Positions 1,608-64,000 are shown, counted from the first letter of the stretch. The stretch is DNA of 64,000 bases from Amoebophrya sp. A120 (GCA_905178155.1 CAJINV010000004.1:1047536-1111535); one strand, 5' to 3'. Notes: a model not told the origin generated them from the sequence alone. A program made the numbers and translations.

Positions 1608-4600
1608 TCAACGAAAATCCCAGAACACGTCGGGAATGGCAATTCTTTGCCGAATGTAAGAACTTTTTGACTTGGTGTTGCTTATTTCCATAGTACCAAT
1701 CGGCTCGTTGGAACTTCCGGTCAAAGAGGACAGAAACTCCTCCTCCACGGAGCTGTGCGAATGCTGGATAAAGTCGTTCTCGATGTTTTCCCGTTCCCGC
1801 GACGCCTCTTGCAGCGAATCCGCGTCTATGGCGTTCTCAACTGTTACATTCTCAACTGTTACATGAATTTGTGATGCAAAAATGGCAAAACTGAAAGGGG
1901 GAAGATAGCGCCTTTTGCATGACAGATTTGGCACAGATTCTCAGCCTGTTTGGGCCTTCCAGAATTTGTCATGCGCAGCAGCTTGATCGCGTCGAATCTG
2001 ATTGGAGTTTTGCATGACAAATCATGTAACAGTTGAGAATGTAACGTTTGAGAACGCCATAGCGTCGTCGTTGAGGTTGCTGTTGGTAGAAGCAGGGTCA
2101 CCACCAGCAGCTTCGGAGGAAGTCATTGACGTGGGGTTTTGATGTTGTCTTTTTGCATTTCCATTTCCTCCACTTCTCTTCTTCACTTTCACAAACCTCG
2201 GCTCGGAATTTGCGTTCCTTATCACCTCTTTCTTCTCTCTTTCATCCGCGGGAGACGTCTGCAAATCGACATCCGCGTCGTTCGCCTTTGTTCTGCGGTA
2301 TTGGAGCTGGTTCAGGTTTATACCGGAGCTGAAGGGGCCGAAGATGGCATTATGATCTTCTTCTTCTTGATCTGGGTCTTCTTCCTTCTTCCGTTTGCGG
2401 GAGCGGTATGGCGTTCTCAAATGTTACACTCATCTCAACTGTTTTTAATGCAAGAACGGCAACAGTGAAAGGGGGAAGACTGCGCCTTTTGCATTACAGA
2501 TTTGGCGCAGATTTAGATGCTGTTTAGCCCTTCGGAGATTTGTCATGCGAAGCAGCTTCGTCGTGGCGATCTTGCTGGTAAATTTGCATGACAAGTCATG
2601 TACTAACAGTTGAGAATGTAACGTCTGAGAGTCCCATAATCGGGTATCGCTCGTTGGGCTGTCCTGCAGGTACTCGTGCTCATGGGAGAAGTGGATCCAC
2701 TGCTTTTCCCGCTTACTGTGATCATTGTCGTAACTGTAGGCCACGCCCTGGTTCTTCGCGATGCCCATCAACGGGATGCCTGTGGCCTCGGGGAGACGGA
2801 GGGCGGGAACGATAGTGTGAGGCTGGGTTTTGGAGGTTTTTTTGCCCTGATTGGAAGTCGTTGATGTGCTGTTGCATAAGAAGTTACTGGCACCTCCGCC
2901 TGTTGAGGGACCACCTTGCTCGTCGTGCTGGTCTTCTGATGTTGTTGTAACCGGACCTTTATTTTTTCGCGGGTCCTGGTGCCCCTGCTTTGTCTGCTCT
3001 TTGCTCGAGCCCTTGCTGCTAGTTGTATTGGCGGTCGTTTTCTCATGCGGTTGCGGTCTGGACCGCTGCTCCCGCTGACCGTGTTTAATATTGTCCTTCT
3101 GGTGCGCCCCGGCGCCCTCCACAGGTGCACCAGCTCCTGCTGCGCCAGACGGTCGCTTGCTGCTGGAAGCTGAAGCACCACTACTGGCATGTTGACCTTT
3201 TGCAGCTCCTTTCATCCCCGCATGATGATCCGATGAACCAACGACCCCAGCGCCAGTTGATGTTTCCGTTTTCTTGTGTCGCGCCGGCGGGGCCGACTGC
3301 GGTCTCGATGTTGGACCACCAGTACTAGCGACTACTTTGCCACCTTTACTGCTCTTATTTCCGGAAATCTCAGCTGGCTGCTCCTGGTTAAATCCCTGAC
3401 TCGCTCGAACTTTCGCTGCAGACTGGGGGCGAATAGAAGCCGATTGCGGGCGGCCAGATATTTTGGTTTTTGCGCCACCACCACTTGCTTTTGCTTTATT
3501 ACTCCCAGTATGGATTGCAAAAGTGTCTGGGTCTGGAAGATTGCTGAGGTTTGTGATGCTGTGTCTGCTTGACACAGAAGGTGTGCCATGCAAGACCTAG
3601 CATCACAGGTTTTGAGACGGTTTCGCAATGCTTAATCCGCATGACAAACGCCTTCATTCGGCGACAGGAACAGGAGCTCCCTTTGCTGTCTAAGCATGAC
3701 AGATCTTTGTGTGATCCAAGTATGCATCACAAGATCGCATCCTTCCAGACCCAGACCTTTTTGCACTTGATACCCAGTCTTCACTTTGTCGCCAGAGATC
3801 ATCTCGTCCGGATTATGGCGCTCTCAAACGTTACATTCTCAACTGTTACATGAATTTGTCATGCAAAAGTGCCTTCAGCCAGCAGATGATCGAGCGGCTT
3901 CGCATGACAAATTTCGGAAGGGCTAAACAGCATCGAAGTCTGCGGCTGCGCCAAACTTGTAATGCAAAAGGCGCAATCTTCCTCCTTTCACTTTTGCCAG
4001 TCTTGCATTGCAAATTCATGTAACAGTTGAGAATGTAGCACTTGAGACCTCCATACGGATCCAACCCGGCTTCGACCACGACTTCTCGATTTCGCTGCAG
4101 CCACTGCAGCGCGGACCTTCGCTTTCGCTTCAACTTCCGATGCAAGGCCTCCGCATACTCGTGCATCTGGTGCTGCCGTTCCGCCCACTCGATTTCCTCC
4201 CCGACGGGTCGGTTTTTGGGCCACGCCTGGCCGTGCGCGAAGCCGTCGTAGGGCGCTGGGTGGCCCACGGTTTTCCAAGCGTGATTTTTCAATTTGTCCG
4301 GCGAGGTAAGGTTTTCGTAGTACTTAGCGAAGTTCTTGTTGGTCATCTTCGAGGATAATTTGGACGGACTGCGGAAGTTTTTTGATGTTGAACATGTTGT
4401 AGTTCTATAATCACGTTGAAGATCTTGATCGCCATCTTCTGTTCTTCGTGTGGCATCATACTGCAGCTTCGCAATGTGACTTTTCAAAGCTTCCTCTGCC
4501 TGTTCGCAATCCTCTAGCGCGCTCATCATCTGTTCGACCGCTTCTAGATGATCACTTGTTGCCGCTGTGCCGTCTTCTATCATGTTTTCCACTTGCTGAA

Positions 4601-7600
4601 GACTGACTTTATTCTCTGTCATAGAGTGCGACGGAACGAGGAGCTGCAGCTTCTGCTTTTTGTTCCTGGTCTTCATATGGTCGTTATTTGGGTCGTTTGC
4701 GTTATTTCCATTTTGGGTTTGCCTGATGGTAGTACCAGCATTGTTCCTGTTCTTGCTTTTACTCGACGCCGGCCCTTTCTGTTTGTTTCGGGCAACAGGA
4801 CCACGTTCTTGCACGCCGACCATATTTTTCTCCTCCTCTCCCGCCCTCGGTTTGATTTCCTTCATCAAACTAAAAGTATTGTCCCAGGGCGGCCGGTCCG
4901 TGATGCGGTTGGCCGTGATCGCCGAGAAGGCCTTTTTCATCGGCTTTCCTCCGGAAGATGTTGGATCAAAATCATCACCGTGGTCGTGGTCCTCACCAGC
5001 TGCGCTAGAATTATCCGCCTCCAGCCGCCACCTCGCATCAAGCACTGTCCGCTTTTTCTGATTCGCGAGCCGCGTTTCCAAGGGCAGCTTCGAGGGGGAG
5101 TATGAATTGCAAATAAAGTAACGCTGTACTAGTATAAATTGCAATACAAATTGGCTCAGCATTACAAATTGAATTTGTCATGCGGATTTGCCTTAGGAAC
5201 TAGATTTGTCATGCATAAATGCAAAAATTAGTACGAGTACGATACTTTTGCACATGATAGGGAGGACTCCTTGCGGATGTCCGGCGTGTCCAGCGGCGAG
5301 GGCTGAAAGTGGGAAAACAGGTTCTGGAAGTTCCAGTCCGGAGGGCGGGGCGTGGTAGGGGAGATTTCTAATTCTAGGTGTTTAGTGTTTATTTCGTCAT
5401 GCTGTAGCTGGCCCCTCTTGCTTATTCCCGGCGGCGACGGGGGAAGTGAGGGAGACCTGGAAGGTGACCGAGAACGAGACTTCGCCTCCACAAGCGTCGC
5501 GACTCTCAGGAGCTGGTGGTCCCACGTGTTTGGCTGTTAGTGTCATCAGTTTTGGAAATTTCAAGTCTCATCTACGAGATGGTGAACTTCTTCGTCGAAA
5601 CATGATCATCATCACGATCCAAGAATTGTACTTCTGACAGACTCTGCATACATCAACATCCCTTAGAAGATTCCTCTAGACCCTCTTGTTATGTTTAGAT
5701 GTAGAAAGCAGCTGAGTGCTATCCGTTGTACGTACCTCCTCTCCTCCAGCTTCCGCACTTTCCAATTTTCTTGCCGCTAGCGAATCGCGCCGCGCCGGCG
5801 CCTTACTGGATGAAGATGATGAAAAACTCGGCCCGGCTGGAACGGTGCTCGCTGATGTAGTAGGCGGTTTCTGCGTGCTAGCAGTGCTCTGGTGACCACT
5901 TTTCGGTAGTTTCGCCGACTGCGGTCGCGTAGAAGATGTAGTAGCTCCACTACTCTTTGTTCCTCCACCTCCACGCCTTTCAAACACTTCCTGGGACCTG
6001 CGCCGCATCTCCAACAGGCGCTCCTCTTCGCTCTGTTTCCTGGTACTAATCCTGATCGTGGTCGCTTCTTGCTCTGCATCATTTGCACCCTCTTGCTCTT
6101 GTTCCGTATCATCATCAAACACTTTTCGCACGGATTTTCTCCTCTCCTGCACCGTTTCGTGGTGCTGTTCAATATCCTGCGCAAAGGTAAAAGTATCGCA
6201 CCCGTAGAAGTACTTGCAATCGAATCATGCATGACGAGTCTAACTTTGTGCCCGATCTAGCACGACAAATTGCGTTTTTTTGTTCTAGCAACAATTTATG
6301 CTAAATGCAACTCATACTCGTACTAGTACTACCACTAAGTGCGATACTTCTTTTGCAAAAATGCATATTCCATCTGCGCGTAAAGTTTCCGTGCGTTGTC
6401 CAAGACACCTTCCAACTCCTCTCTCGTCTCGTCATCCAGTTCGATCTTCTTCCCAAGCGCCTTGCACCGCTCCAGCAGACTGTGTATCACCGGCGGGTCA
6501 GAGCGTTGCGGCTTAAACTCGGAATCGGACTCCTCGGGTGGGGCGGGTCGTTCTTTTTGTTGATCCCGATCCGTAGGAGGTTCTTGCTGCTCGTGCACCA
6601 CTGGAGCTGCATCAGCAGCAATCTCAACAGCTGGAACGTGCTGGCTCACTTCTTGCGAAACAGGTCCTTGCTCGTCCATGATTTCCATGGCAGCTTCTTC
6701 CTGCGGTCCTACAGCACCAACTTCTACCTCGGAAGCTCCTGCTGCTCCACGCGGCTCCTCCTGGTCTTCTTCCTCCGCAGCTTCGTGATGACCGGCACCG
6801 CCTGCTTCCGGTGTCTGCGGTTCATTTTCATCAAGATTCATCTCGTCCGCCCCCTCAGCAGTTACTGGCACAGGCCGCTCCTCTTCAGGGCTGACGACGT
6901 CTTTTTGCACGTTGTACAAATCTTCTGCGTTTTTGCCACCGCCTTTATTTATTTCCGCAGCCCCATGATCCGTCGGGGAGGCGAAGGGCAGGTCCTTCAG
7001 CGTTTTACTGGCTTGCCCTAGATCATCAACAACTCCGCTGCTGGAGTATGTTTTGTCATCGTTCTTGTCGTTGACATCGTCGCGGCTTTTGCTGTTCATC
7101 TCTACTTCCAAACTAATTTCTCCTCCTTCTCCATCTCCATTTCCTCTACCTCCATCATGTCCTTGCTCCTCCGTCACCACGCTGATCGACTTGGAAGCTG
7201 CAAGCTGATCCTGCTCTGAACCACTGTAGTTTTTGTTCTCTTCCTGTTTGTTGTTCTCGTCCTGATTTATTGTTCTCACCGCCAGCGAAGCCGCCACGTC
7301 ATACAGAATGCCGTTGACGAAAGAGGAGGAGATCGCGTCTTCGGCGTTTATTGGGTTTTGTACTCCTGCATCAAGAGGTCGTTGATCTTTGCTTGCTGTT
7401 TCCACTTTTTGATTTCGATTAGCTTCAGCTTCATGTTCATCACCAGCCGCATCACTTGTTCCGTGAAGATCCATCCCTCCCGCATCGACATCATCTTGAT
7501 CTTCTTGCTTTCGTTCGTCCGCCTCTCCTGCCTGGTAGAAAGTGAACGGATGTGAATGATGTGAATGTTTCAGCGTAGTGCGCACTAATGGATCTTGCGA

Positions 7601-10600
7601 AGGATCTACGACCTCGTCGTCGACCACTTCAGAAGATGTGGGCTGTCGCTGCCCCTGTAAAGATTCTGCACCGACAGGGAGAACCTCGCGCTGCGTAATT
7701 TCCATGTTCATTTCCACTTCCACAACTCCATTGTGCGAACTGGAAGTGCAGCTTTCCTCAAACAATTGCTCCTCCTCCCCCGCAAACCCCTCCTCATGCG
7801 GCGACGCCAAGCGCGTCCCGGCCGACGCAGACGTGAAGTCGTCTTCCGCCGCCGTGTTGTGCACTTCAAGCTCGTTGTTGGTCTCGTTTAACAGATTATT
7901 GTCGTCTAGTTCTTCATCCTCAATTGTTTCTTGACCTGCAACTACCGCAGCAGCGTCCACAAGATTGGAGAGAAGACTACTGCCGCTTGATGTATTGGAA
8001 TTGCCACGCTGTCGGTTGTGCAGATGAGCTTCTTCTTCATCGCATTGTACTAGTGTTCTTGCCCGTGCACCACGACCGTGGCTGTCGTCTAGTCTCTCGT
8101 CTTGATGCGCATTGATACTAGACGCACTTGCCTCCTGCTGTCTCATCAAATTGTAATTCGCGGCGGAGCTGGCTGTGGCACTGCTGCTCTCTTCATCCCC
8201 GAGTACTGCGCCGTTGTCACTACCTGAGTCAGCGGCCTCCACTCCATCTACCTCGTCCTGCGGCAGTGGCGGCGTCCGGGGAGTGGAGAATGTACTGGTA
8301 GCAGGATGAAAACCCTCATATCTGGAGTCCGTGCCGGGAGCAACAATTCCTTCTACTCTAGTAGGATTATTATCATCCGCCGGCGTGCTGGTCTGCGACA
8401 GAACGACTTCTCTGCTGCCATCATGATTCTCGTCCACGACCTCGCAGCTCGACCCGCCCAACAGCGACTCGTTGGCGGTGCCCGAATGGGAGTGCGAATT
8501 ACTGTCCACATTCGCGGAGCCCGTGTGCGAGTGGGTAGCGCCGAGGAGGCGCGCGTTGGAGCTGGAATTGTGTAGCGAAGAATTGTCGGAGGACGCTACC
8601 CGGAAGGAGGAAGAGCTCGAGGAAGAAGAGTTACTGCTCTTCACCCCCTCGCTTTCTCCACTTTTACTCAACTGTTCTTCTTCTACATTATCGCGTCCTC
8701 CTCCAGGCGCGCCTCCATCTGCGCCTGCCTCCGAGAATGAACTTTGACTTTCTTCGCAAGAGGAATTTACCTTCGACATCGACGCTAGAAAATGCTGGCC
8801 TTCCCGACAGTCATTTACCTGGTGGCGGACCATCCAGTCGTATGCAAGAAAAAAACTGTGTAAGTGTAACTCCGTGTTGCAGACGTTGCAATACAGTTAC
8901 ACTTGTCATGCTGGATGTGCATCAGAGCCTATTTTCATGCGTGTTTTCGCGTACCAGCTACGCATGACAGGTTTTCTCTGTCATGCAAAACAAATCTGTG
9001 ATGCTGTTCCTGCAAGAAAGTTACACTTACACACTTTTTTCCTTGGATAAGTCGCGGCTGGGCACTATTACCACCTCGTCGAACCCCTGGGGCGCTCTGT
9101 ACACAACCGTGCAGGTATCAAATGCAAAAATGTCTGGGTCTGGAAGATTCTGAGACTTGTCATGCATGTTTTGCATTGGCCAGCATGTCTGTGATGCATG
9201 CCCTAGCATCACAGATTTTTTGAAGGCTTCGCGATGCCTATTCCGCATGACAAATGGAAATGCCCTCTCCGCGTAGCAAAAATTGCATTCCCTTTGCTGC
9301 TCATGCAATACAGATTTTTTTGGAATCCAAATTCAGCATCACAAGTTGCATTCTTCCAGACCCAGACATTTCTACCTTTGATAGCAGGATTTTTTCAGCA
9401 ACTCTTTCTCGAACCTAGGGATCGGGACCGAGAGTTCGGGCTTGTTTTCTCGATCTTTTGACGTCGCGGATTTATTGTTCCTGCCGCCCTCTTTTGACTT
9501 CTTCTTTGTCACTGCCGAGGTGGTGTTGGCTCTCTGCAACGTCGAGGACCCGCTTCTTTGACGATTTGCAGCTACTACCTCTGCATCGGAGGAGGAAGAG
9601 TTTTTATTTATTCCATCAGTCGCATGGGTTGCAGCTCCAAGGGTTTTCGATCTCCGAACCGGTCTGGAGGTAGATGCTGCTGCATGATCCACGGGATGAA
9701 GTAAATCTTCCGGACAGGAGCCCCCGCCGGCCCCGCTTTGCTCCGCGGAATAAACAAGCTCCTGGCCAGCAGCAGAGTTTTTGCTCTGCTGTGTAGCAGC
9801 TTCTGAAGTAGAGGTTGGCTGAGACGAAGAGGACGAAGATTCCATTTCGGACGAAGACTGGTCTTCGCTTCTCGCGTCTTCACCCCGCCCATCGATTATG
9901 GTATAATGATCTACACCGCCAGCACGACGAGCTGCCGTTCTTGTTCCCCCCTGTTTAGAAGGCAGCTTCACATGACTCAGAAACCGGTCCACTTCGCTCT
10001 CGTCGCGGTAATGCTTCAGCAACCCAAGTTCCAGCCCGCTGGCATACTTCGGGTGCCCGGCGTTCGCGGAGGCGAGAAAGCTGCTGGAGGACGACTTTAT
10101 CACGCCGGGCAAAAGCCGAGTGGATGCGCCGGTTCCTGCGGCAGTTACAGAAGAACTCCCGTTCATCTGCAAGAACGTCGGTCCAGCCGGCTGATATCAA
10201 GTGCAAAAATGTCTGGGTCTGGAAGAATGCATGTTTGTCATGCTCGTCTGGCATGTCTTTAAATCTGTCATGCACGTTACCCAAGAGAGCCATTTTTCTG
10301 TGGTGCAGGAACGCAGTTTGTCATGCAGAATAGACAACACCTAGAAGCTCAGAAACTTGTCATGCTGAGCCAGCAGCATTTGTGGCCTCATCATGAGACG
10401 CCACCCAGCATCACAAGTTTCCAGACCCAGACATTTTTACATTTGATAGCTGATGCTGGTCGACGATAACTTTCTTCCGCAATTCCAGGCTGTTCCCTGC
10501 AGCGAGTATCGATTCGTCGTAGACAATGTGGTCTTTGTCCCCGTCTGGGCTGTTGAGAACCACCTGGATACCCCGCGGAGACATCTCAGAACAGATCGCT

Positions 10601-13600
10601 CCTGGTTGGTTCGAACGAGAACAACCGAGCAAGTTGCTATGATTTAGAGCTTTAACACCCGTTAGCATGAGAAGTGGCGAGTTTGTAGTGAATTTTGCAT
10701 GACAAATAGCAGAGGAGACTGCCGGGACATTGTCCCTTTTGCTCTTCTGGGAAGTGGGTTCTGCACACCGCAGAAGTTGTCCAGGCTTATGCGGCGGGCA
10801 GCTGGACATGGCCTGGGCGTCATTCTTTGGCCATGTCTTTTCGTCTTCCTGTGCTTGCAAAAGAGCAAGCACTGCAGCAGCCGCGGCAAAGACGCCAAAA
10901 ACAAGAGCCGCGAAGCACATAAGTGCAGTTTAGGCAAGATGAGGGCGCGGAAGCAAAGGTGAAAGGACCCGGCCGAGAGCTTTGACGCGTCTATCCGGCA
11001 GGCGCGTGAACTCTCCAGGCCTTATCGGCAGAATATAGAGGCGCTAAGGGCAACAGCGGGCGCCTGTCTTTTCCCCTCGGCCCCACTTCCCAGGGTCTAC
11101 TTGTGCGTTTTTTTGAGCACTTTTCTGCGCTAAACTTTGCTTATCACGGTCGAAAAGTGGCGCTCGGTGAATTTTGGGGTGAATTTTGGAAAGGACGCCG
11201 GTGAATTTTGTCCTCCGGCTCTTGTTCAAAATGCGCTGGCGCATGAGAAACTCCGGGTTTTGGGGCTTCCAGAAAGTGTCGCAAAAACAAAAAGCCTTAA
11301 AATTCACCAAGGGAATTCTTGGCCTGGGGGTCACGTCGAATAAGACTTGCTCCGGAGGCAAAAAACACCTGGGGAGTTGTAAGCCGAGCACAGCAGGCGA
11401 AGCAAACTAGTGCCCGCGGCCGAGTCGTGCCTTCCCTTCCACCCGAGGCTACTCCCAGATATCCAATTCCAAACCACAACTCGCGAGAGCGTGCGCGTTG
11501 TACTCGTGCCCCTGTGTTCAGGCGTCGCCCTCCCTTTCGACCATTTCGGAGAGGAACTTCTGAGGTGAGCGCGCAGATGAACAAGAGCCCCACGATCCAC
11601 CTTCTTTGGTTATGCACTACACGGTCCGGCGGGCCCCGTAAGACCGCTTCTTTCGGTGCTGCAAGTGCCACCTGGCACCGAGCAGCCCTTCACGCTGCGT
11701 GAGCTGCTTGGGATCGTGTCCAGCCCTTTACCACGCAGCGCACTTCTCTTTTGAAGTAAATGCAAGTCATGCAAGACAAATTCACTGCAAATTCACCCCT
11801 CTTATGCTAACGAGCGTCCAAGGCATAAGTTATGATCTTTTCCGTGATGGGTAGAAGTTTTCTTCAATTTTTTCCGGAACTTCCGCTCTTCCTTTTGCTG
11901 CTGGCGGATCTCGCGCGCCGCCTTCCGTCGTTCTTGATTGTAGGCCGAGGAAGACCCGCCGGAATCGTCTTCTAGTGTCGCGCATCAAATGCAAATATGT
12001 CTGGGTCTGGAAGGGTGTAAACTTGTCATGCAGATTTTCATTTTCCATGACCCATGAGGTCAGGAATGCGGAATTTAGCATAACAGACTCTGCGAGGTGG
12101 TCTCTGCCACTGCCATGCCTATCCTGCATGAGAAGCTCCCTCCCAACTTGGTCGAAAGTGGAAAGCTACTTTTGGCACTCATGCAACACAGATTTTTGTA
12201 TGCTTCAGATTTACCATGACAAGTTACCACCTTCCCGACCCAGACATATTTGCAATGCATATCGCGTCGGCAGAAAAGAGGTACTTGAACGAAACCGCGT
12301 ACTCTGTTTTGTTCTCTTCGTTTTCGTTCTCTTCGTTGCTGCTTCCGTGGTAGTTATATGCATTGCAAATATGATGTCTGCATCTGGAACTTGTGATGCA
12401 AGGAAGGGAATAATGAGCACGCTGTAATGCGCTGCCCAGCATGACAAGTTCTTCCGTGGTTCTGGGTTGCGTCATCATCATCATCATCATGTAGTGGACA
12501 CTCGCTCCCAGCGCCACAGGTCAAGGATCCCCTCCCCGGGGGGTGGGCGAGGAAGCACTTTCGGCGACCTCAACATACAAAAGCCGAGCGCTACCACGGC
12601 AAGTCGCCCCAATACAAGTGCCAACCAGTCGGGAGCTACCCACCACACCTGATCAGCACAGCCCGGCCAGCTAGCCGAGCGCGACAGCCCAACATACAGA
12701 ACGATCCAGGACCCGACCCATTTTACGCCATAAGTTTTTGTTCTCACGGAAGAGACGACGTACCCCTTTGGGCTAAGGGGCGAGACTCTCCCTTAAGCCG
12801 CAACCCCACCCGGACAGGGGAGGCTGGACCATTTGTGCCTTACCTGCGGCACGGACGAAAAAGGCAAGTGCCGCGGACCACAGATGTCAAACCATTGGCC
12901 AGTTGTTTGTCACTGCTGACTGGCAACCCACCTGGGGCACAGTGACAACTTAAAGGTTTAGTTTGTGCGTGGCAGTCTTAGTGCAACTACTTGACTTATT
13001 CTGCAACAGAAGCAAAGGGGGAGAGGGGGGGCGGGGGTCTTACGCCAGAGTCGCGACGGGACTTACCTGAACGTAGGGTGCCTGGCAATCCCCTACTAAC
13101 CCCATAACCCTTGCGCGCCCGTAACTTCGTCTTCGTCAGCACCGCGGCCAGGAATTTCGACACACCATTTCCAGCATGGCGGCCGCCGTTTGTACGAAGT
13201 CCCACACGCAACTCCGTGGCCAGAAAGTCCGATACGAATCTTTCACGCCATGTCCATGGCGGCGGTAAGACTGCGCGTCGTGCCTGGTTAGCTCGTGATA
13301 GTCGTGCTGGAGTTGCTCGTGGTAGTCGTGCTGGTGTGCTGCAGTTGCTCGTGGTAGTCGTGCTGGTGTGCTGCAGTTGCTCGTGGTAGTCGTGCTGGTT
13401 AGCGTGACAGCAACTTGAGTGTACTACATAGCGCGGTAGTTCCGAGTCTGGTCGTCGTCGGTGTCCGCACGTTGTTGCCGTTCCTCCGAGTAAAAGCATG
13501 GTCATCTCGATTCGATGGCTGGCACTCCTGATAGTGCTGCTTGACGAGGCCTTGTACAAACGCCGCACCTCCGTGTAGGACACGAGCAGCAACAGAACAT

Positions 13601-42753: not shown

Positions 42754-42762
42754 TGCGTACGG

Positions 42763-51974: not shown

Positions 51975-54900
51975 TTACGAACCAACGCCGTCAACAGGCA
52001 ACACGCTACCACTTTCCCCCTCGGCGGAGGCGATCGCGGCGTCTCTTCGGTCTTTCCGCATTTGGTCAATCTTTGCACACACCTCACTCATGCCCTTGGA
52101 CCGTGCGATCATGTAACCCGACTTACCGATTGGCGACTTTGCGTCCTTGATCAACGGCAAAAAAAGATCCATCTGGGTCTGGATGATACTTAGTGCCAGT
52201 GTTTCTTTTTGTCATACTGTTTTTTGTGCTCGAGAATGAAGGTCTCGTGTGGCTTACGGCTACGGGCCATATTAGCATGACAGATTGTAATATTGAGAGG
52301 GTTTTTCAATGGCTATGGTCCCGCATGAGAAATTATCCCCTCTTCCGCTTGGCGACAAGAAGTTGGCAACTACGCTTGCAGCAGTGGTCCATGACGGGAT
52401 AATTTTCTTTGTGTGAAGATCTGAAAGGCACATCATCAAAAGTTTCGTTTGCAGGAATTCCCAGACCCAGATGGATATATTTGCACTAGCATAACCTTGA
52501 AATTCGCCACGTCGCAGGTCGCGAGGTCGAAGGATTTGTGCGCCAGAATGGCGAAGCAGAGGCGTTTGAACCCGAGCTGCGCTGCGCGGGAGAAACAGGT
52601 CCGGCCAGACGAGTATCAAAATGAAAAATCCCCCCTCCCCATATCAAAGCGGATTTTTGTGCTGCTGATTTGTGGCCACAAATCAGCTCTGCATTGCAGG
52701 GAGGCACTGCGGCCAGATCCCCAAGCTAGGTAGGGGCGTATGGGTCTAGTTGTTCAGCATGGCAAACGGCTCCCCTCTAGGCCCAACAACGTGACAAATC
52801 GCCTCCATAATGGGGCGGAAGCTTCTGCCCTTGTCTTCTTGCAAGACAGATGTGATTTGTGACCTCAAATCCGCAACACAAATTTTTGGAAACATACCGT
52901 TTCAATATGGGGACGGGGGATTTTTCCTCTCTATAACGAGGTCTTCATGTTCATCATCGTTCTGTCCAGGCTATGCGTTGCAAAAGTACTGTCCTATCAT
53001 AGATAGGTGCCAATACAGATTTCACATGTACTAGACTTTTATTTTGAAAAGGAAATGCACAGTGGGTCGTGAAAAATGCAGGTTCTCCTATATCTACTTA
53101 TACTTTGCGGTTGTATTGCCAACATTTATTACACGAAGAATACAATACTTTTGCAGTGGATAAAGGTCCGGGCGCTGCAGAATCTCCAGCCCGAGGTCCT
53201 CGTTGGTTAAAACGGTCAAGCAGGTTTCCCCGTGTTTGTCGTTCCGGTTAAGTGCGAACGTGGACAAAAGGTAAAACTCGGTGGAAAATAAAACGTGGTC
53301 TTTCTGCTCCTGTCTAGCTCCTCGTCGACACACCTCAGAAGACACCACGACCTCGGGACCCACTTGGCACCGCACCAGATTGCTTTCGTTCTCGGTCTCC
53401 ACGACAATCTCAGTCACGATTACAGGGGGCTCCGTGGTTGTACTGCATCTACTACGTGAAGTTGTAGATGAAGAGGCCGCGGCGGCACCGTCGTACCAGA
53501 GGTTTCGGCAGAACAGTTGCCCCTTCTCCCCGTGCTCAACCCAGAAATCGGATGGGTGCAGTGTGCTGCTGTCGTCGAATGGTGGTACTGGAGGTGGCCC
53601 GCTGCTGCTAGAGCCGCCGCCCGTGTTGAAGTTTATCATCATGCCAATATTATCGGACGAGAACACAGGATGAGGACGAGAAGAACCTGCGACATCAGTC
53701 GTACCAGCGGTACTAGGATCATCTTCACGCCCCAACGAGGACGAGAGAGCTACAGCTTGTTCTGCTTCCTGTGCTCCCGCCGCCACCCCAGTTCTTCTTG
53801 TTGTACTTGTAGCAGGAGTTTTCTTCCTCCTCCTAACAACCCGCACGCGACGTCTTATCATCAGCCGGGCCAGGCTTGTGTCCTCGGCGCAGACAAATTG
53901 AAACAGACTGGATCCGGACTCCCGGTCGCAGTGGTTCACCATCAAAGGCGGCGTGAAACTGGACTCCAGGAAGGCCTGGAGCGTTGCGATGGCGGAAGAC
54001 CGCTTGACCCTGAATTGCGCCGGCGTAGAGGTGCGAGCGGAAAGAAACCCGGTGCGCCAGAGGTTCCAGAGGTACCGGTCGGAATAGTGCAACGACTGCT
54101 GCAGCTGCAGCTGCGCGTCCCGCGCCAAGATCTTTGCGTTCGCGAGTCTCTGGGCTTCTAGTGGATCATTTATTTTCACGCTACTTTTTTTTGACAAGGC
54201 AGTTACTTCACCTCCGTGGTGTTCCTTGTCCCCGGCCCCCGCAGATGCTGTTGTATTTGCATCGGGACGTTGAACAACTTCTGCTGGGTCTGTTGTTAGA
54301 TTATCGGCATTATGAAAATCTTCAGCTTCACGGAAGTTCATCAAGGCTGCTGGCGTGGTAGTGATACTGTTTAAATTCTCCGGATTTTGTTCCGCCTCCA
54401 GGATTTCGTGGGCCACCGCCACCATGCGGGCGTTGTAAGCCAGCTCGTTGGCCTGCACCAACCGCGCCTGGAAATCGGCAAATTTCCGCATTTCCCGCTG
54501 GTAGATCCAGGCCCGAAGAAAATCCACGCGCGACTCGAGCTCCAGTTTCTTCGCTGCGACGGCAGAGGTTGATGTTCCTGCAGTATTAACAAGCGGTCTT
54601 TGATGAAGAGGTGGCCCTGCTTTTGGCTCCACGATGGCCTGATAGATCCAGAGCCGGCTGTTTTTCCCGGGCGGCTTCCCATCAGGGTAAAACTCGTGCT
54701 GCTTGATCAGAAGCCTGTACTTCTTCTTCGAAGATTTATTATTTGGCGGAGGCAGGAAGTTACTACAAGCTCTAGCTCCCGCTGCATCTTTATTGCCACC
54801 TCTTCCAGGAGCTTTGCCTAACTGCGCCGCTACTGTGCTACCGTCCATGCTTGTAGAAGTTAACCTGTAGGCATCAGTTTTGGAACGACCGTCTCTCTTC

Positions 54901-56535
54901 GCCGCTTCGTGGAGCAGCTGCTCCTCCACCGCATCACGGGAGGTCCCAGCAACAGCATCTGGCTCTTGCATGAGTCCTCGTCGCTCCTCGAGCAGCCCGT
55001 GGTTCCTCCGGCCGCTTTTCTGCATCTCCCTGGCAGCCGTCTTTTTTGCCATCTTCAGCCAGGCGGCCTCTTGTTTCCTCCTCGAACCCGATGAAAAAAG
55101 CTGAGCTTTCTGCTGCTTGCTGTCTTGCGAGGGCTCGAGGTATTCGGGCACCGCAAGCAGGGAATGAAGAAAGTCACCGTCGAGATCTTGCACATAGTTT
55201 ATTCTATCCGGCGGCACAAAGGATGACGCGGTGGTGGACGTTGGACTAGGGCTTGGGCCGCGGGCGCGGCCCCCACCATGTAATATAGAAGAAGTTGGAG
55301 TACTACTAGAACTCGTACTAGTATACCAGCCAGGCGGCGCTAAATTTTTCACATCTTCCTTATCGTCCAGGTGTCTACGCGGCATTAGAACTGCTGGCGA
55401 AACTGGACCATAAACTTCGATGTAATCGCTCAAGTCCTCGCCCTCTTCGGCTTGCGTTTGTGTACTACCGTTTGTTTGCTCGTCCCGAAGCAATTCTAGA
55501 TCTTCGTCCGCTTGCCTTATTCTTATCGGACCGGCGCCGTCCCCCGGACCTCCCGCTGCAACTACAGGTGTTCTACCACTTTGCTCGTCAGTTCTGCTCG
55601 TTGAATCTTCATTATCCAGATCGGAGAGAAAGTCCTCCTCGCCCTTGAAGAAGTCTTCGTCGTCGCTATTGCAAGCAAATTCGTCGTCCTCGTCGAAATC
55701 TGCTAAACCTTCTTGATTTATCTCATAAAATCCTTTGCCCAGCGCGCCTCCTTCCCGCGGCGTGGAGTGGTCCTCCTCGTCCTGCTCTGTGGTACAAGCC
55801 CCCTCTGAGGAATAATTATCGCCACGGCCGATTTTTCCCTTCACAGGACGACTCTTCCTGGTCCCTACTCGTCGCTCGACCGCCTGTAATTCCTCGGGAA
55901 GGAAAATTTGTCCCGTTTCGCGATCTACCTCGAACAGAACGATCAGACACGCGGGAATCCCGTGCTGAATGTACAAAAGTCGCTCGAAGTCACACCGCTT
56001 CACCAGCAACTTCGTCTGGTTGTAATCGTTTAGGCCATGAAGTGATGTAGTTGCCGGTGTTCTTGTAGTGGAGTTCTGTTGCTCCGCCGTGGTGCTGGTC
56101 TGCAGCCGTTGCTTTCTCCGGACCACCAGATGACCCCAGACGCAGACCTATCCTTTGTAAAAACGTCCCCACCCCACAGCTGTCAGGCAAATCGGCATCG
56201 GTGAAAATGTCTCTCATGCGGAGCTCCATGAGAAGGAGCATTTTGTAGTCGCGCTTTGGATTTTGTACCGCTCCAATCAGCATGATATGCTGACGACCTG
56301 GCCAAACAGGATCACACTACGAGGCCAAACCTGTCATGCGCAACAGCCAACGCTTGCTGATTTGTCTTGCAGATTTACCAACTTGACTATGAGGTGGGTG
56401 CGTTTTTACATAGGATAAGACCGTAACGGGATTCCCCGCCAAATCCTCCAGATCGACGGCATAGCGCTCGGCCGATACGTCGTCGCGAAGATCAGCGGGA
56501 AAGGATGACGAAGGTTCTTCTTGTAGTAGCGGCAT
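51975..56535 (-). CDS. ~1137 aa protein with C-terminal ankyrin-like repeats and a possible N-terminal ubiquitin-like fold; 4 introners
   Basis: Removing 1147 nt leaves 1138 codons; the spliced C-terminus reads LNRNDKHGETCL...ILQRPDL|DRTMMNMKTS|SGRTCFSRAAQLGFKRLCFAIL...NFK|DAKSPIGKSGYMIARSKGMSEVCAKI. Confidence 0.75.
52149..52493. mobile_element. TIR introner, family A-like (decayed; GT-AG compatible)
   Basis: gatcaacggcaaaaaaagatccatctgggtctgg...ccagacccagatggatatatttgcactagcata; TSD tcctt/acctt. Confidence 0.8.
52614..52935. mobile_element. TIR introner, family E-like
   Basis: tatcaaaatgaaaaatccccctccccatat...atatggggacgggggatttttcctctctata; TSD acgag. Confidence 0.88.
52972..53162. mobile_element. 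TIR introner, family C (decayed)
   Basis: tatgcgttgcaaaagtactgt...acaatacttttgcagtggata; TSD caggc/aaggt (3/5 match); removing 196 nt restores the frame. Confidence 0.78.
56149..56417. mobile_element. TIR introner, family E-like
   Basis: tatcctttgtaaaaacg...cgtttttacataggata; TSD agacc. Confidence 0.88.
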
Positions 56536-58552
56536 GATTTTACAACTTATCTATTTTTCGTGGACCACGTTCGTGAGCTGACGCAACACCGGTTCTTTTT
56601 GTTCCTTGTTCTAGGCTACGGCACCGGCCTTATTTTCCGAAAAGAAATTAACGTCCACAACCCCGCCACAACTGTATCTTTTAGCTGGACGATGGTACCA
56701 CAACCACGACCGGTGAATCGAAAATGACGCGCCGGTGGTCCTGGTGCCGAAAGTCATATTTTCATCTCGTCCGCGATAAGTAACAACCCCAGGCGTGCCA
56801 TGGAATCTTCATGGATGCAGCTTTGAGCCGTACTTCTTCTATGCGTGCGACTGAAAGCATTGGTAAAAAAATCGAAAATAAACTGGTGGTCACAGGAGTC
56901 ACAGTCAGTGAAGAGAGGTTTTCAAGAAAATAAAACAAGACGAGATTGTTGTTATTTTTATCGGCGGATCTTGGTACTCTGTTAACATACCGCTCCAGCA
57001 GAAGACACTTGTCGATGGTGGCCTCGAAGATGTTGTCGCTGAAATAACGGAAGAAATTTCTTGGAGCTCCACTCGACGTCCTGGCGCCGTGGCCTACAGA
57101 ACGAACAACAAACAACTCAATGCAAACTCAAATCACAAAAACAAAAACCTTCGGGAGGATCATCTGCATGCGGTCAATTCATTGAAAGCAGGTCAGATCT
57201 CCTCGTCTGGTCGGTGGGCCCCCAACGCGCGTTGGTGGATCTAGTATAGTGATCTCAAAGAAGGATGTATTTCTTGAGCGCGATGATCTCAATAAAGAAG
57301 GATCAGCTGCGCAGCCGGGGCCGGCCGCTACAGAAAAAGTACTGTCGTCCATAAGAGTTGTGGCTGGAGTCACTCTGTGCTGATCACAAAGCAGATCTTC
57401 ATCTTGGTGGTCCCGCTCACATTCAGAAATCGATGTGTCCTGCTGTGAGACTTATTGGATCTTTGCGCGATGTTGGAATGGCCAACAGGTGCAGCTGTGG
57501 ATTCGGCTGCATCTTCCTCTCCGAGCTTGTTCGTGGTTGCAGATGAAGATGCTATATTTAGAAAAATCCTCGTCGGCCCGCCTCGGGAAGTGGAACAGGG
57601 GACCGAATTGGGATTGTGTCCGCTTTTCATCTCGGCATCTTCTCCTTCTTGTTCGGAGTACACCTTGTTTAGGACAACAAATTACTCTGTCGATGATGAT
57701 GAAGATGTACACACCAGGGAAGTAGAGCAGGCAACATCTTCAAGGGGACATCAACATCAACATGGTCCCCAAGAAGCACCACGACAATTATGGATTGCCG
57801 CGGATTTTCTTTCACTTGCCTGCTCTTCACACGATCCGAGTGCCTCCTGAACTACTAGATGTTCTTGCTGACAGAGTGTAATTGTGATACCACGAGTTAG
57901 AGCCCAGGCGATCTTGCTCCACTTCTTCGTTTTAGTGCTCTCTTAAAGTTAAAGCTAAGCTGGTAAAAAAAAATCAGAAAAACAACAAAATGCTGTAAAA
58001 GAGGTAAACAAAGTTTGAGTGCATGCGAAAACGGACCTAGATTTTTGTAGACTTCGTGAAGAGCCTTTCGTATAATCAGTTCAATCAATCGGTAACCGAA
58101 GCTGTATGTGTATATTTTTCAAACAATAAATTCACTGACATCCCATTCCTTAATTGACAGAAGTACACCACCAGGTGCAGCTGTGGGTGACTCTGGCGCC
58201 TTGTTCTCGCCGTCTCGAGATGATAATAAATACTGATAGTGTACTTAGCTTTAGCTCCTCTCCTCGGTTGCATAAAAAGGATCCTTGATAGATAAAAGAA
58301 AGGGAACAAACCAATCGTCTGCTCCTATGCTCAAACGCAAATAATTTTGCATGTCAGGCAAGAGGAGCGATGCGTGGGCGTGGCTATGCAATACAAAGCC
58401 CAGAGTCAACAACATGCCAGACGAGCTGCGGCACAAATCCTCGCTCGGCAAAAATATGTCTCGTCCTCGTCCCGTGTGGTCGACAAGACGAAGGTCATCT
58501 CGCTCTACTTCGCCACCAGGATCATGTTGGCTGCGTTCTTGGCTCCGAGCTG

Positions 58553-58640
58553 CCTAGCAGCAACTCACGAAGCTGCCAAAGCCGTGGCCGGTGCAGCAGG
58601 TGTAGATGAGTTTCTTCCCCAGTTTTTCTCCTTTCTTCTT
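58553..58640. repeat. Third, partial copy of the duplicated exon (KLIYTCCTGHGFGSF)
   Basis: ctagcagcaactcacgaagctgccaaagccgtggccggtgcagcaggtgtagatgagtttctt is identical to the sequence from 62437 onward and similar to that from 60150 onward. Confidence 0.85.
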
Positions 58641-60149
58641 CGTTCTACAACTACCCAGCTTTGCCAATCCTGTCAGAGCCGCTCCCCCCTTTGTTCACAC
58701 AACGAACAAAGCGCGGAGCCTGCTACTTGCGGATTGATGAGTGTAATTTGTTGACACTACGAATTTTTAAAGCGTTTTGACTATTTTGCTCATTTCTTAT
58801 TTATTCCCACTGAACAACTACTATATTACCCAGCAAGCAAGGTAGAGGTCCGCCGTCGGATCCACCTTGGCTCGCGGGACCAATTCTAAGTACGTGAAGA
58901 TTCGGCCGTTGGCACAGGTTTTGTTTAGGAGTCCCAACAAGATGACCTCCCACTGCGGCCACGGATCCATGTAGATGAGATTGCAACTACCGAAGATTTT
59001 TTCTAGAACAGTTCTTGGAATTTGATTTGTTCTTCAGCTCTACTGCTCATCTTTTCGTCCAGGCGAAATACTACCAGCGCCTTGGAAGTAGATACACTCC
59101 CGATTTTTTTTTTAGCAAAATACCACACCGGGTTTGCTTGTTCAGACCCTGCTGTGACACCTTGCTTTTTTCCACCATTATTTCGAAAAAGTAGGCACAA
59201 AGAAGTAGTCGAGATTGTTGAAAGAAACACGACCTTTGTACCAAAGTAAGTCTCGTCTCACAACTCTGCTTTTCACCCACTTTGATACCTTGCTTTGTTT
59301 TCTGAGAATTGGCTCTGGATTTTTTAACTTTTGTTGTTATCACGACATGGACGTAAAAAAATTCACTTTTTCTCACTGAAGACATAGTCACGACTTTTTT
59401 TTCAAAATAAGTCATCACCGCTAATAGTTTGCCAGAAAGATATGCGCGTCTCACCGATGCATTCTCTTGTCTCACCGCCATCTCATATTACGTTTTCACC
59501 TTTTTCTTTTTCACCGCCTAGTTAAGATACTACCGAAAATTAATATTGCAGCATAGTACGGACGATTTGTAAGGAGCACGACGACAATTGAGATTGAAAA
59601 ACTTGAACTGTTTTTCCGTTTTCACTCACTATTTTACGAGGCCGTTGTAAAGGAAGTACGCGATGAAAGTTTCGTCTGGAAAGGAAGTACGTGTCTGCCA
59701 CGTGATCGCGTGGCATTTGGCACTAAAACTTGAAGCTGAAAACAAGCATCAAACTCGGTGTAAAACTTGTTGAATATTATCGCGCGTATTGCTCGATTTT
59801 TACTGAATCTTGGTACATCAAACACTTGTACCATCTTAAAGGCACATCAAGATGTCTGCCGCAACCGCAGACGTGTCGTCTCAGGACGATGATAGTGCAA
59901 CTCTGATGCTCCGCCTGGCCTCCATGGGCTACAAAGCCGATGCAGACGCTCCGGGGACCAGCGGTGGGATAAGTTCCGGCACAGAAAATCATCCAACGAA
60001 TAATGCGGGGGAAGAGGTGGATATTGCGAGTGGCGCCACGAAAACAGGCACCGGCTCTCAACTGATCGGGTATAACATGCTTTTTTTTGAGAAAAATGGA
60101 AAATTGAAATCTTGATCTTCCGTGAAAGATCTCTAGTAGGTGTGTTGCT

Positions 60150-61646
60150 GAAGCTGTCAAAGCCGTGGCCGGTGCAGCAGGTGTAGATGAGTTTCTTCGA
60201 TTGTTTTTTCGATTCTTTTTCCGTCCGTGGCGGTTCCGCAGGCAAATTCAAAGTTGCTGACGCCGCCGCCGGATTGTACTGCGCGTTTGCATTGCCGCCA
60301 ACTTCTTCGGATCCGTTGCTGCAAACTTCGTCCTTGTCATGATACGGTTTGCCAGTCAAGGGATTTATCTGCGTCACCATGGCAAAAAACTCCCCACAAG
60401 TCTTGGGTGGTTCGTCGGCAGCCTGGGTTTTTCCCTGACCGTGAGCAACACTGATGCGTATCACCAGCAAATAGTGATGTGGGTTCGCAAGATCGTTGTA
60501 GCATGTGCCATGCACATGCTTGTCTGGCACAGCTCTCAGCTCTCTACTAATACAGGCGCATGATGAAGTAGAGATCCTGGTCCTGCTCCGCTGACCCATA
60601 AATATAATGCGCAAACGCAACGCCTCATGCAAAATACGCAGCACATCATAGCAAGGGAAAATCAAAGAAACTGGTCTTGCTTCGCTGCGTAAGGTTTGTG
60701 CGGCAGTGCGGGTGCGGCCATCATAGTTTACAACATTCAGAGAATTGCATCACGACCTAGCAGACCCAGCCAAATTTGCATTCGATAACGCGATATCCAA
60801 GACAAAAACTGTAATTAATACACCCACACCCTCAGCAGAGAGAGATGCCAAAAATCGTGCGTTACCCAGTTTTTTCTTGTTGTGTTACAGAAAGAAAAAA
60901 CCGCCTGTGGTTCTTCAGTATCGTTGTTCAATTTTATTGCATTGCGGCGCTTTTCTTTGACTTTGACTCTGTCGTTTCATTTATGATAGATTAATATCTT
61001 CATCTCGCATTGCATGACATATTCTGCATTTTGCTTACCAGTACCGTAGGTTTGTATTTTTTTGAAAGAATCTAAGTTCATCAAATTTGACAGCATTATC
61101 ACAACATATTCTTTTTCGTCTCCGCTGGTCCTGGTCCTGCTTCTATGTGTTGTGTATAATTTGCTTGTTTCTGCTTGGATATGCGACTCAGCAGCTGCGC
61201 CACGTCCACGCCCGCCACCGCCTCGGGACCCCCTGCTCCGTTGAAGGCGGCGCCACCACCCAGAATACCCATCGTTCGGCGAAACTTCATTTTGACCCTC
61301 GAGATGAAACGCGACGGCGAAAATTTCAACAAGTTCAGGTGAAATAGCAAGGTGCAAAACAAAGGCGTAGAAATTGAAAATGAAATCGTAAAGGATCAGA
61401 AAATAAATGTTCGAATATGTTTTGAGTGCTGATTTGTCAAATGAGGAAGTTGTAGGGACCTGCTTGGAAAAGGGAGATGATGATGAAGCAAAGAAGGGAC
61501 GTGGTAAGAGATACAACGTATTTCAACATGCTCGTCCTCCTTTTCCTTGTATAACAATATCATGATGATGTAAGTACCCAACCGGGGGGTCAAAGAAATA
61601 AGATTAAGAACTTCATTTCCTGTTCATCGCATGCAAAAACTAAACC
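60150..61646 (-). repeat. Tandem duplication, copy 1; exons of a small Cys-containing, probably secreted protein
   Basis: Colinear with 62452-64000; shared peptides GGNANAxYNPAAASAT, KKLIYTCCTGHGF and ELVEIxAVAFHLEGQNEVSPNDG. Full exon structure not resolved. Confidence 0.8.
60459..60787. mobile_element. Old family A-like introner shared by both duplicates
   Basis: tatcaccagcaaatagtgatgtgggtt...gacccagccaaatttgcattcgata; TSD atgcg/acgcg. Confidence 0.75.
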
Positions 61647-62765
61647 GCGCACCACACCGAGATTCCAGTTCCACACATCACAAACGTACGACGAATACAA
61701 CTACCGATGTGATTCATTTTACCGCGACAAGACCGATCCGTTATAACTTTCCATTTGTTCCACATCAAGAACGAGACCGATGAGTAGAGCAGTCCTCTCC
61801 TCCAATGACCGACACTACACGAGCACAACCACACGAGGACGCATTGGCATTTTGGATACACATATGGTAATTGATTCTTCATATCACCGACATACTTTTG
61901 GTCCGAATTAAACCGAGTTGGAGTTGTGATGTCACTTTGCTGGACGACATGGAAACAAATTATCGTAGTCTTTAGGAGGTGTTGTACTTGTTTCTCTTGG
62001 AAGATTCGTCGGTGGATGTTCTGAAGAAATAAAGAAGTCCAACAGCTAGGGCAAACCGATCACTACTCAGACTACTTAGTGCATCACCATTTTCATTCCC
62101 GTTCGCTTGCCTGTGCTGGAGGAAATTAGAATTAAATTGCAAAGTATCCATCGATCGGGCCGTGTGTTGCTTTCGGTTGTAAAGAGGTGTCAAAAGGGTT
62201 GATAATGGGACGTAACGGTCACCTGTACCTGGTCCTGGAAAGTACATCAAGTTCAAGTATTGTATGCATTTACAATAAATTTCAACCTTTGAATCGATAG
62301 ATGGTGAGATCGACTTCAGTAAAGTTCTTTCGTTGTTCGACATGAAGGTAAAATGAATCAATCATGTGCAGATCACTTCTTTGCGCCTCTGGCTCTGCTC
62401 CCCGGCGCGAGGCTTTCCTCGTCCCAAGTAGCACAACTAGCAGCAACTCACGAAGCTGCCAAAGCCGTGGCCGGTGCAGCAGGTGTAGATGAGTTTCTTG
62501 CTCTCTTTTTTTCCTTCTTCTTCGTTGCCGGGGGCTTCTTTAGGCAGCGTATAAGTTGCTGACGCTGCCGCCGGGTTGTACCTCGCGTTTGCATTGCCAC
62601 CAGCATTTTTTGAAGTCATGCTGCAAAATTCATCCTTGGACACCTGAGTCTCGGTCTGGGAGGATACAATCGAGGATAATTCCGAGAAGATTTCGTCACA
62701 CGTCCCGGTTTGGCCGGGGCCGAACCCCTGCTGCGTCTCCCCAGTACCATGAGAAGTGCCGACGC

Positions 62766-62919
62766 TATGAATTGCAAAAGTATCGTACTCGTATAAATGC
62801 ATTAGTTACAAATTTCCTCAGCATGAAAAATGAAATTTGTAATGCTGATTTGCCTTAAGAGAGAGATTTGTAAACGCATGACTGCAATTACTACGAGTAC
62901 GATACTTTTGCACTGGATA
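62766..62919. mobile_element. TIR introner, family C; present only in duplicate copy 2
   Basis: tatgaattgcaaaagtatcgtactcgta...tacgagtacgatacttttgcactggata; TSD gacgc. Confidence 0.93.
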
Positions 62920-62925
62920 GACGCG

Positions 62926-63200
62926 TATCAACTGCAAATATCTATCTGGTCCGGCAGTCATGCTTGTCTGACACAGCTCTCAGCTAATGCAGGCGCACGA
63001 AGTAGAGCTCCGCTGACCGGTAAAAATGCACAAACACAACGCCCCATGCAAAATACGCAGCACATAGCAACAGGAAAACTGGTCTTGCTTGGCTGCGCGG
63101 CAAGATTTGCATTCGTGTCGCAGTGCTGCGCCCATCATAATTACATCATTCAGATAATTGCGTCACGACCTAGCAGACCCAGACAGACTTAAATTCGATA
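62926..63200. mobile_element. Old family A-like introner, paralogous to 60459-60787
   Basis: tatcaactgcaaatat...gacccagacagacttaaattcgata; TSD acgcg/atgcg. Confidence 0.75.
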
Positions 63201-64000
63201 ATGCGATATCCAAGACAAAAGCTGTACAATTACAGCCTCAGCAGAGAGAGATGCCAAATCAAGTAAGCGCAATCGTGATGTGTGACGCATTTTCTTGTGT
63301 CACAGAAAGAAAAAAGCGCCTGTAGTTCTTCAGCGTTCTTTCTGTTCAATTTTATTGCATTGTGGCGCTTTTCTTTGATTCTGTCGTTTCATTATCATCG
63401 TGATCTCGCAGTGCATGACATATTCTGCATTCATGCTTACCAGCGCCGTAGTTTTGCATGTAATCTAATTTCGTCTAATTTGACGGCATTTTCATCATAT
63501 CATCCTGATCTTTTTCATCTCCGCTGGTCTTGCTATTTTGGGTTGTGTAGAATTTGCTTGCCTCTTGGATATGCGACTCAGCAGCTGCGCCACGTCCACG
63601 CCCGCCACCGCCTTGGGACCCCCTGCTCCGTTGAAGGCGGCGCCACCACCCAGAATTCCCATCGTTCGGCGAAACTTCATTTTGGCCCTCGAGATGAAAC
63701 GCGACGGCCAAAATCTCAACAAGTTGAGGCGATATAGCAAGCTGCAAAGCAAAGGCGTAGAAATTGAAAATGAAATCGTAAGGGATCAGAAAATAAATGT
63801 TCAGTAAGTTTTGAGTGCTGATTTGTCAAATGTGGAAGTTGTAGGGACCTGCTTGGAAACGGGAGATGATGATGAAGCAAAGAAGGGACGTAAGAGATAT
63901 AACGTATTTCATCATGCTCATCATGCTCCTCCTTTTCCTTGTTGACAGTATTAAAGAAATAAGGATTTATTTCGTGTTCATCGCATGCAAAAACTAAACG

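Follow-up and report, generated by a model that had tools for sequence, protein, structure and literature searches.

Introners with TAT...ATA ends in Amoebophrya sp. A120: removal as element plus five bases and the probable position of the cuts

The stretch of DNA analysed here, 64,000 nucleotides of the Amoebophrya sp. A120 assembly GCA_905178155.1 (CAJINV010000004.1:1047536-1111535; hereafter the window), carries 33 mini-transposons with TAT...ATA ends. Contigs of RNA-like sequencing runs skip such elements together with five further bases, whereas contigs of a DNA-like run keep them. The finding itself is already known: the elements are introners of Amoebophrya A120 as described by Farhat et al. 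2021 (PMC7789003), because an exon in the window shares 100% identity with a 2786-aa protein that bears the name Amoebophrya sp. A120 (identity to further A120-named proteins, P0003 among them, is also 100%) and the elements match the published description. The original prediction had already pointed to introners reported from Amoebophrya. The phenomenon is therefore real and previously described, and the cut positions are a new, testable and thinly sampled detail. About two thirds of the A120 introns leave without GT or AG.

Elements and host genes of the window

The elements interrupt the following genes, three of which match a database protein (P0001, P0003, P0004):

1611-16015, minus strand: host gene 1, P0001 (2786 aa, without a Pfam family), interrupted by 13 elements and, near 5.5-5.7 kb, by one GT-AG intron
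32411-37902, minus strand: host gene 2, restored frames of 890 and 241 aa that GT-AG introns likely connect, 7 elements
44809-50043, minus strand: host gene 3, P0004 (1468 aa, RlaP/PF10127 nucleotidyltransferase), 4 elements
51978-56550, minus strand: host gene 4, restored frame of 1142 aa, largest exon without Pfam match, 4 elements
59850-63785, minus strand: two small tandem paralogs, P0003 (144 aa) being the right-hand one, with 5 elements clustered at 6-bp spacing

When the window was scanned strictly for TAT...ATA flanked by an exact 5-bp repeat, 28 matches were obtained, and in 22 of these at least 11 of the 20 end bases are complementary; no such match occurred in any of 20 Markov-shuffled control windows. 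Enlarging this census by a terminus profile and inspection led to 33 elements (E1-E33), which make up 16.5% of the window. The predicted number of 31 agrees with the short elements (136-466 bp) and has to be raised by two long ones (10638-11827 and 12357-14008); the predicted end coordinate 63205 was too low, as the last short element ends at 63571. All 33 lie inside coding frames, as predicted, every host frame is on the minus strand, and the region from 14.9 to 32.6 kb is element-free. The individual elements, with the size of the RNA skip in bases where one was found, are:

E1, 1827-2061, minus: family C, perfect 5-bp repeat; junction in P0001
E2, 2407-2638, minus: family C; silent repeat mismatch at position 4; junction in P0001
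E3, 3509-3772, minus: family B; junction in P0001
E4, 3814-4055, minus: family C, orientation opposite to E1; junction in P0001
E5, 5101-5259, minus: short family A; junction in P0001
E6, 6173-6367, minus: family A-like; mismatch at position 2, P0001 residue that of the upstream copy
E7, 8841-9049, minus: junction in P0001
E8, 9116-9383, minus: family B, 91% identity to E17; junction in P0001
E9, 10195-10448, minus: family B; junction in P0001
E10, 10638-11827, minus: 1190 bp, irregular; +5 out of frame, 1190 bases removed according to P0001; the exception
E11, 11983-12261, minus: family B; left end CAT, not TAT; junction in P0001
E12, 12357-14008, minus: arms of family B on both sides of a nested insertion (about 1.4 kb); repeat perfect; P0001 has the element+5 junction
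E13, 14674-14925, minus: family B; junction in P0001
E14, 32581-32734, minus: family A-like; frame evidence only
E15, 32806-33271, minus: family B, interrupted by a nested insertion (about 200 bp); frame evidence only
E16, 33605-33867, minus: family B, orientation opposite to E17; frame evidence only
E17, 33927-34188, minus: family B; frame evidence only
E18, 34855-35004, minus: family A; frame evidence only
E19, 35108-35361, minus: family B; frame evidence only
E20, 35785-35928, minus: family A; frame evidence only
E21, 45649-45864, minus: inverted ends perfect over 33 bp; skip of 221 (element+5) in RNA-like contigs; interrupts the RlaP domain
E22, 47324-47506, minus: mismatch at position 4, upstream base kept in RNA (from piece ends, joint row not listed)
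E23, 47595-47730, minus: skipped together with E22, 329 (both elements+10)
E24, 48730-49005, minus: family C; junction in P0004, no RNA joint listed
E25, 52149-52493, minus: altered end base; mismatch at position 5; RNA skip 350, downstream base kept; GT-AG also fits
E26, 52614-52935, minus: RNA skip 327
E27, 52972-53162, minus: mismatches at positions 1 and 5; RNA skip 196, cut after 1-4 repeat bases
E28, 56149-56417, minus: GT-AG by sliding; no RNA joint listed, little cover
E29, 60459-60787, minus: mismatch at position 4; RNA skip 334, upstream base kept, E30 still present
E30, 60794-61181, minus: at 6 bp from E29; still present in the listed RNA contigs, which show no spliced joint
E31, 62766-62919, minus: missing from the paralog at 60454 (empty site)
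E32, 62926-63200, minus: counterpart of E29 (71%), 6 bp from both E31 and E33
E33, 63207-63571, minus: counterpart of E30 (76%); joint skip of E31-E33 809 (elements+15)

TAT is found at 64 of the 66 element ends, and positions 11-15 are A-rich. Read along the transcript, the 5' TAT is invariant (33/33) and the 3' ATA is present in 31/33, the altered ends being CAT at 11983 (E11) and GAT at 52149 (E25). The 5-bp direct repeat is perfect at 24 elements, shows one or two mismatches at eight and is irregular at E10, so that the predicted ends and target-site duplication hold in general, apart from these deviations. About six to seven families occur in both orientations, in line with the predicted six. 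Sequencing depth in element-containing bins reaches about 100,000 compared with 45, showing that the elements are repeated in the genome, and the paralogs at the right end of the window are colinear once element+5 is deleted. The 5-bp duplication, the repeated families and the empty paralogous site of E31 show that these are non-coding mini-transposons of the terminal inverted repeat (TIR) or MITE (miniature inverted-repeat transposable element) type. We know of no superfamily with TAT ends and a 5-bp duplication.

An internal motif, GCATGACA, is present in 53 copies inside and 2 outside the elements of the window, often about 46 bases from an element end, and is likely a transposase or chromatin signal. 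Two elements carry nested sequences. In the insertion within E12 (12470-13860, about 1.4 kb), 188 bases are 96% identical to a second assembly (L021:3372-3559), compared with 70-85% for elements, which suggests a younger mobile element; a 244-aa frame in E12 had no Pfam match, and no transposase was found, although no genome-wide search for one was made. About 13 bp are duplicated at the borders of the roughly 200-bp insertion in E15 (33024-33226), in contrast to the 5-bp type.

A scan of a metagenome collection detected at least 146 loci with related elements, and the best 80 of the 146 are all on JACKZZ01 contigs, here called the second assembly; a search of viral contigs gave 0 matches. Among the loci listed, the elements are mostly 70-85% identical to those of the window, and the 30 longest matches outside single elements are again element matches, not exons. 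The 5-bp repeat is perfect in 209 of 298 paired elements (pairs up to 700 bp), has one mismatch in 36 and one or two mismatches in 47, whereas perfect repeats of 4, 6, 7, 8 or 9 bp occur at most once; GCATGACA is found in 252 of the 298. Orientation could be assigned to 216 of 256 elements with at most two mismatches and is even; repeat composition is unbiased and the mismatches by repeat position are 15, 12, 6, 12 and 5. Element lengths peak near 150 and 260 bp. Of 113 spacers between neighbouring elements (L001-L146), 31 measure 35-100 bp where 8 are expected, about four times chance and a linker-like length. Nucleosome phasing is a possible cause of such spacing.

Deleting each element with one repeat copy restores long frames, as originally predicted: 923, 890, 1470 and 1142 aa and, provided that E10 gives up one further base, 2117 aa. 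Lying within a frame of at least 150 aa does not single out +5, as 33/33 elements do so also at +1, +2, +4 and +7; the distinction comes from the full-length frames, from the database proteins and from the RNA contigs. Junctions matching element+5 are present in P0001 (12/13), P0004 (4/4) and P0003 (3/3). Both predicted junction motifs, GWEIRH/SCKML and VEY/TGRELG (slash, junction), are found in P0004 and align gap-free with homologs; in the RlaP gene the homologs are gap-free at E23 and E22 (15/15) and at E21 (7/7 of those covering it). For host gene 2 (E14-E20) a homolog search found none and there was no database match. If retained, 22 of 32 elements would shift the frame.

Removal from RNA and position of the cuts

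Contigs of sequencing runs were mapped on positions 44600-64000 of the window only, a region with 13 elements. Runs X3-X6 (two samples of one study) have a depth between 0 and about 790 across bins, which is RNA-like, and were assigned as RNA by guess; X1 is DNA-like with a flat depth of about 45x and may be the assembly's own sample, representing one stage and contigs only. In the RNA-like contigs, the skips at E21, E22+E23, E25, E26, E27, E29 and E31-E33, thus at 10 of the 13 elements, each correspond to the element plus five bases, which is the gap length at non-canonical joints expected from the prediction of a precise removal of element and one repeat. The RNA-like runs have zero cover where X1 keeps its even depth of about 45x. 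Contigs of X1 pass without a break through E22, E24, E25, E27, E29 and E30, the X1 depth for the 809-base joint is 0, and the excised form is absent from this one run, as judged from its contigs.

Partly processed molecules were also found. One X6 contig lacks E29 and contains E30, X5 has both, and the RNA-like runs taken together contain unspliced, half-spliced and spliced forms. Because RNA-like contigs skip the elements, DNA-like contigs keep them and a partly spliced form exists, removal likely acts at the RNA level and DNA excision is unlikely; of the two levels that the prediction had allowed, only RNA is borne out. The half-spliced contig suggests that in tandem elements the downstream intron is removed first. 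Altogether, RNA or a database protein supports 23 of the 33 elements, eight have frame evidence only, E30 is only seen retained and E10 is conflicting.

Mismatched repeats reveal which copy is kept in the RNA and thereby the position of the cut, which we count as upstream-repeat bases kept. These are 4-6 for E22 (from piece ends), 4-5 for E29, 1-4 for E27, at most 4 for E25 and 4 or 5 for the triple E31-E33, and only four bases fit every informative joint. As mismatched repeats at three single-copy sites bracket the cut, and assuming one rule for all elements, the intron is likely N-TAT...ATA-NNNN, cut one base before TAT and four bases after ATA. This bracketing is new, the border having been left open in print, and is thinly sampled.

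At this register each of the 32 regular donors reads NT, followed by A at +3 and T at +4, AG acceptors are absent (0/32), and the first exon base is C9, G8, A8 and T7. The single GT-AG intron fixed by P0001 starts with GTACG; the 5' end N-U-A-U would match positions +2 to +4 of the GUAC donors of the host genome but lack their G, and no base would be fixed at the 3' end. Sliding the junction within the repeat gives GT-AG at 52149 and 56149 only, as predicted; in the second assembly GT-AG is reachable in 11 of 216 oriented elements. The 6-bp spacers between E29 and E30, E31 and E32, and E32 and E33 would leave one-base exons. This spacing is not general, as it occurs in 0 of 208 spacers of the second assembly.

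E22, E25, E27 and E29 are removed at the same length despite one or two repeat mismatches. Folding of 31 elements predicted a terminal pair probability of at least 0.5 in 20 and an open pair in nine; the terminal TAT/ATA pair is predicted open (probability at most 0.1) at five RNA-verified elements, and E22 and E29 are predicted to pair little end to end. The proposal that the removal system reads a terminal stem plus the direct repeat is therefore only partly supported: most elements fold well, but a repeat match is unneeded at four sites, so that reading of the repeat is not supported as proposed, and the stem is predicted open at five spliced sites. Cuts at fixed distances from TAT and ATA fit the data better, and the repeat would serve only to make the joint seamless.

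Candidate machines for the removal

The account that we favour, with moderate confidence, is that the mini-transposons are kept in DNA and removed in RNA as element+5 by fixed cuts, most likely by a relaxed spliceosome. As to the machine alone, we give a relaxed U2-type spliceosome slightly better than even chances. A mini-transposon that duplicates 5 bp would insert into coding sequence and stay in the DNA, and a spliceosome that has dropped its G and AG checks would cut N-TAT...ATA-NNNN. The U2-type spliceosome would do the chemistry, the paired arms would bring the ends together and the 3' site would be set by its distance from AUA. As the offsets of one and four bases add up to the duplication length and the ends are palindromic, removal would be scarless whichever way round an element had inserted, and this would account for the spread of the elements. 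The U at +2 and the A at +3, shared with GUA donors, argue for the spliceosome. So do the nearly complete set of spliceosomal proteins (83/89) and the 15% of A120 GT-AG introns that are hybrids with the same repeat layout, both given in the text of PMC7789003, and the U2 precedent reported for Fritillaria (bioRxiv 2025.08.15.670264).

Several points weigh against this account. The GT...AG ends of U2-type introns are not found: donors are NT in the window, and in the second assembly neither G at +1 (69/216) nor AG (13/216) is selected. Conservation does not differ significantly between 5' and 3' ends there (213 vs 209 of 216 at base 1). A search for a branch point with the GT-AG 3' consensus was too noisy and found none, and the fixed branch-point distance that one GT-AG intron hinted at did not hold for other candidates. 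A spliceosome would have to handle one-base exons. No spliced E30 is present in the RNA contigs listed, and E10 is incompatible with +5. The register derives from few sites, and since E25 may use GT-AG, its upper bound depends on E27, which is covered in one sample at a depth of about 6 and with 32 letters on its short side. All RNA evidence consists of complementary DNA (cDNA) contigs from two samples of one study with a guessed RNA label, and the database proteins likely derive from the same transcripts. The E31-E33 joint is weaker, as the family concerned is multi-copy and its expressed copy is not the same as the window sequence.

With the same RNA-level removal and the same offsets, a non-spliceosomal system like that proposed for Euglena could act: proteins would read a palindromic triplet pair, set at fixed but unequal distances from the borders, on a hairpin, cut, ligate the exons and release a circular or linear RNA. 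We regard this as a tentative alternative, less likely than the spliceosome. N1-TAT...ATA-N4 parallels the code N3-CDG...CHG-N5-6 tested in Euglena (PMC12501133), G, AG and branch signals are missing, most elements fold strongly at their ends, U1 snRNA is undetected in the published account of A120 (PMC7789003), and one-base exons are easier for an intron-defined enzyme. On the other hand, the GUA donor has the same U at +2 and A at +3, the terminal pair is predicted open at five RNA-verified elements with little pairing of E22 and E29, and no enzyme of this type was identified. Hybrid GT-AG introns are common in A120 (15%, PMC7789003) and rare in Euglena (PMC12501133). A second, non-spliceosomal nuclear splicing system in this Amoebophrya lineage, convergent with that of Euglena, with the code N/UAU...AUA-NNNN/ (slash, cut), no fixed terminal bases, tandem introns removed singly across one-base exons and tens of thousands of insertions invisible to selection, seems to us a shade more doubtful still.

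A homology-guided joining, in which a machine aligns the two repeat copies and cuts at variable places in them, is improbable. E10 does not follow the 1+4 rule, the five brackets also fit site-specific registers, and the borders are called variable in the text of PMC7789003; yet one or two repeat mismatches leave the removed length unchanged, a single register accounts for every informative joint, and the 47 mismatched elements of the second assembly persist.

Programmed, ciliate-like DNA excision in some life stage, with RNA made from excised DNA, appears very improbable: the ends are transposon-like, X1 may represent a single stage and contigs drop rare variants, but X1 keeps the elements, the RNA-like runs contain all three splicing forms, and an infecting stage would have to pass the elements forward. 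Strong hairpins with short direct repeats are the usual setting for reverse-transcriptase switch artefacts. The least probable explanation is that the cDNA joints are such template switches across the hairpin (artefacts of this kind are treated in the abstract of PMC8240250), with true splicing at other sites, since a switch would be expected to keep the downstream copy, yet E22, E27 and E29 keep upstream bases, the homologs independently require element+5 at E21-E23, and most elements would shift the frame if they were retained. On theoretical grounds we rejected a bulge-helix-bulge substrate, which requires complementary flanks, whereas the flanks here are identical.

For the favoured spliceosome as for the Euglena-like system, a fixed register, if true, gives testable predictions, with U at +2 and A at +3 pointing to the former and unequal spacers round a palindromic triplet to the latter. 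It would also correct gene annotation, in which the borders follow aligner preference.

Neighbouring sequence and comparison with known systems

P0004 combines an RlaP domain (PF10127, RNA repair polymerase-beta family) with a second, more diverged copy; 26 relatives were found, and two of three tested showed two matched stretches. P0001 lacks, at residue 1002, three residues of the window frame within a His/Ser repeat. A giant gene at 20392-32090 (minus strand; frames of 3579 and 352 aa with DUF3638, DUF3645 and DUF6606) contains no element and lies in a 17.6-kb element-free stretch. The region 58550-63900 holds a small tandem gene family with a cysteine-containing motif at the C-terminal end and three related stretches in the window. 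Its RNA depth is high in X5 and X6, and DNA depth and differences indicate more, collapsed copies. RNA contigs also cover the gap between the paralogs, and E33 is mostly removed whereas its counterpart E30 is only retained. A separate repeat at 59668-60069 shows loose ends at 60069 in all RNA-like runs, on a plus-strand frame near 59850.

More than 60% of the RNA-supported introns of A120 are non-canonical according to the text of PMC7789003, which describes inverted repeats beginning with TAT, seven bases and AAA, direct repeats of 3-5 nt, a length of about 240 nt and RNA-supported, non-GT-AG removal. The elements of the window share the TAT start, the A-run, the direct repeats (here 5 bp), the non-GT-AG removal and the repetition. 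That account states that the border position 'remains unknown' and calls the borders variable and the families strain-specific, whereas here a single register with one-base exons and an order of removal is derived and the families also occur in a second assembly. The nine top A120 site types in its Table S4 all have NT donors and mostly AN acceptors; as aligner preference is possible, we do not count this as support. The word 'lariat' has 0 occurrences in its main text. Gozashti et al. 2025 (PMC12130899) give 58 A120 families, and most of the 19 A120 rows considered here are classed there as TIR DNA with no superfamily assigned. Our literature search found no paper that resolves border or machine, as the prediction had held, although subscription papers and figures could still do so.

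The MITEs of TIR DNA transposons are likewise short and non-coding, with TIRs, a fixed target duplication, many copies and empty sites. The nonconventional introns of Euglena, as described in the text of PMC12501133, resemble the elements in their MITE-like origin, inverted ends, lack of GT-AG and a triplet pair at fixed, unequal border spacers. In this unrelated lineage, however, the triplets are CDG/CHG at +4/-6, compared with TAT/ATA at +2/-5, so that the window ends N-TAT...ATA-N4 do not follow N3-CDG...CHG-N5-6 with a purine behind the border; the preference for a purine at the exon start is not seen in the window, and circular release is reported there. Introns of Fritillaria borealis (bioRxiv 2025.08.15.670264; PMC11282704) are also described as MITE-derived, with TIR and target duplication, and mostly non-GT-AG. 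They preferentially end in AG-AC or AG-AT and require the U2 spliceosome, with duplicated U2AF and intact U1 (bioRxiv 2025.08.15.670264), in contrast to the ends N-T and N-N of the window introners and a U1 snRNA not detected in print. Strain Kv has GT-AG introns and U1 as reported in the text of PMC12005148, and is therefore a natural comparison for A120.

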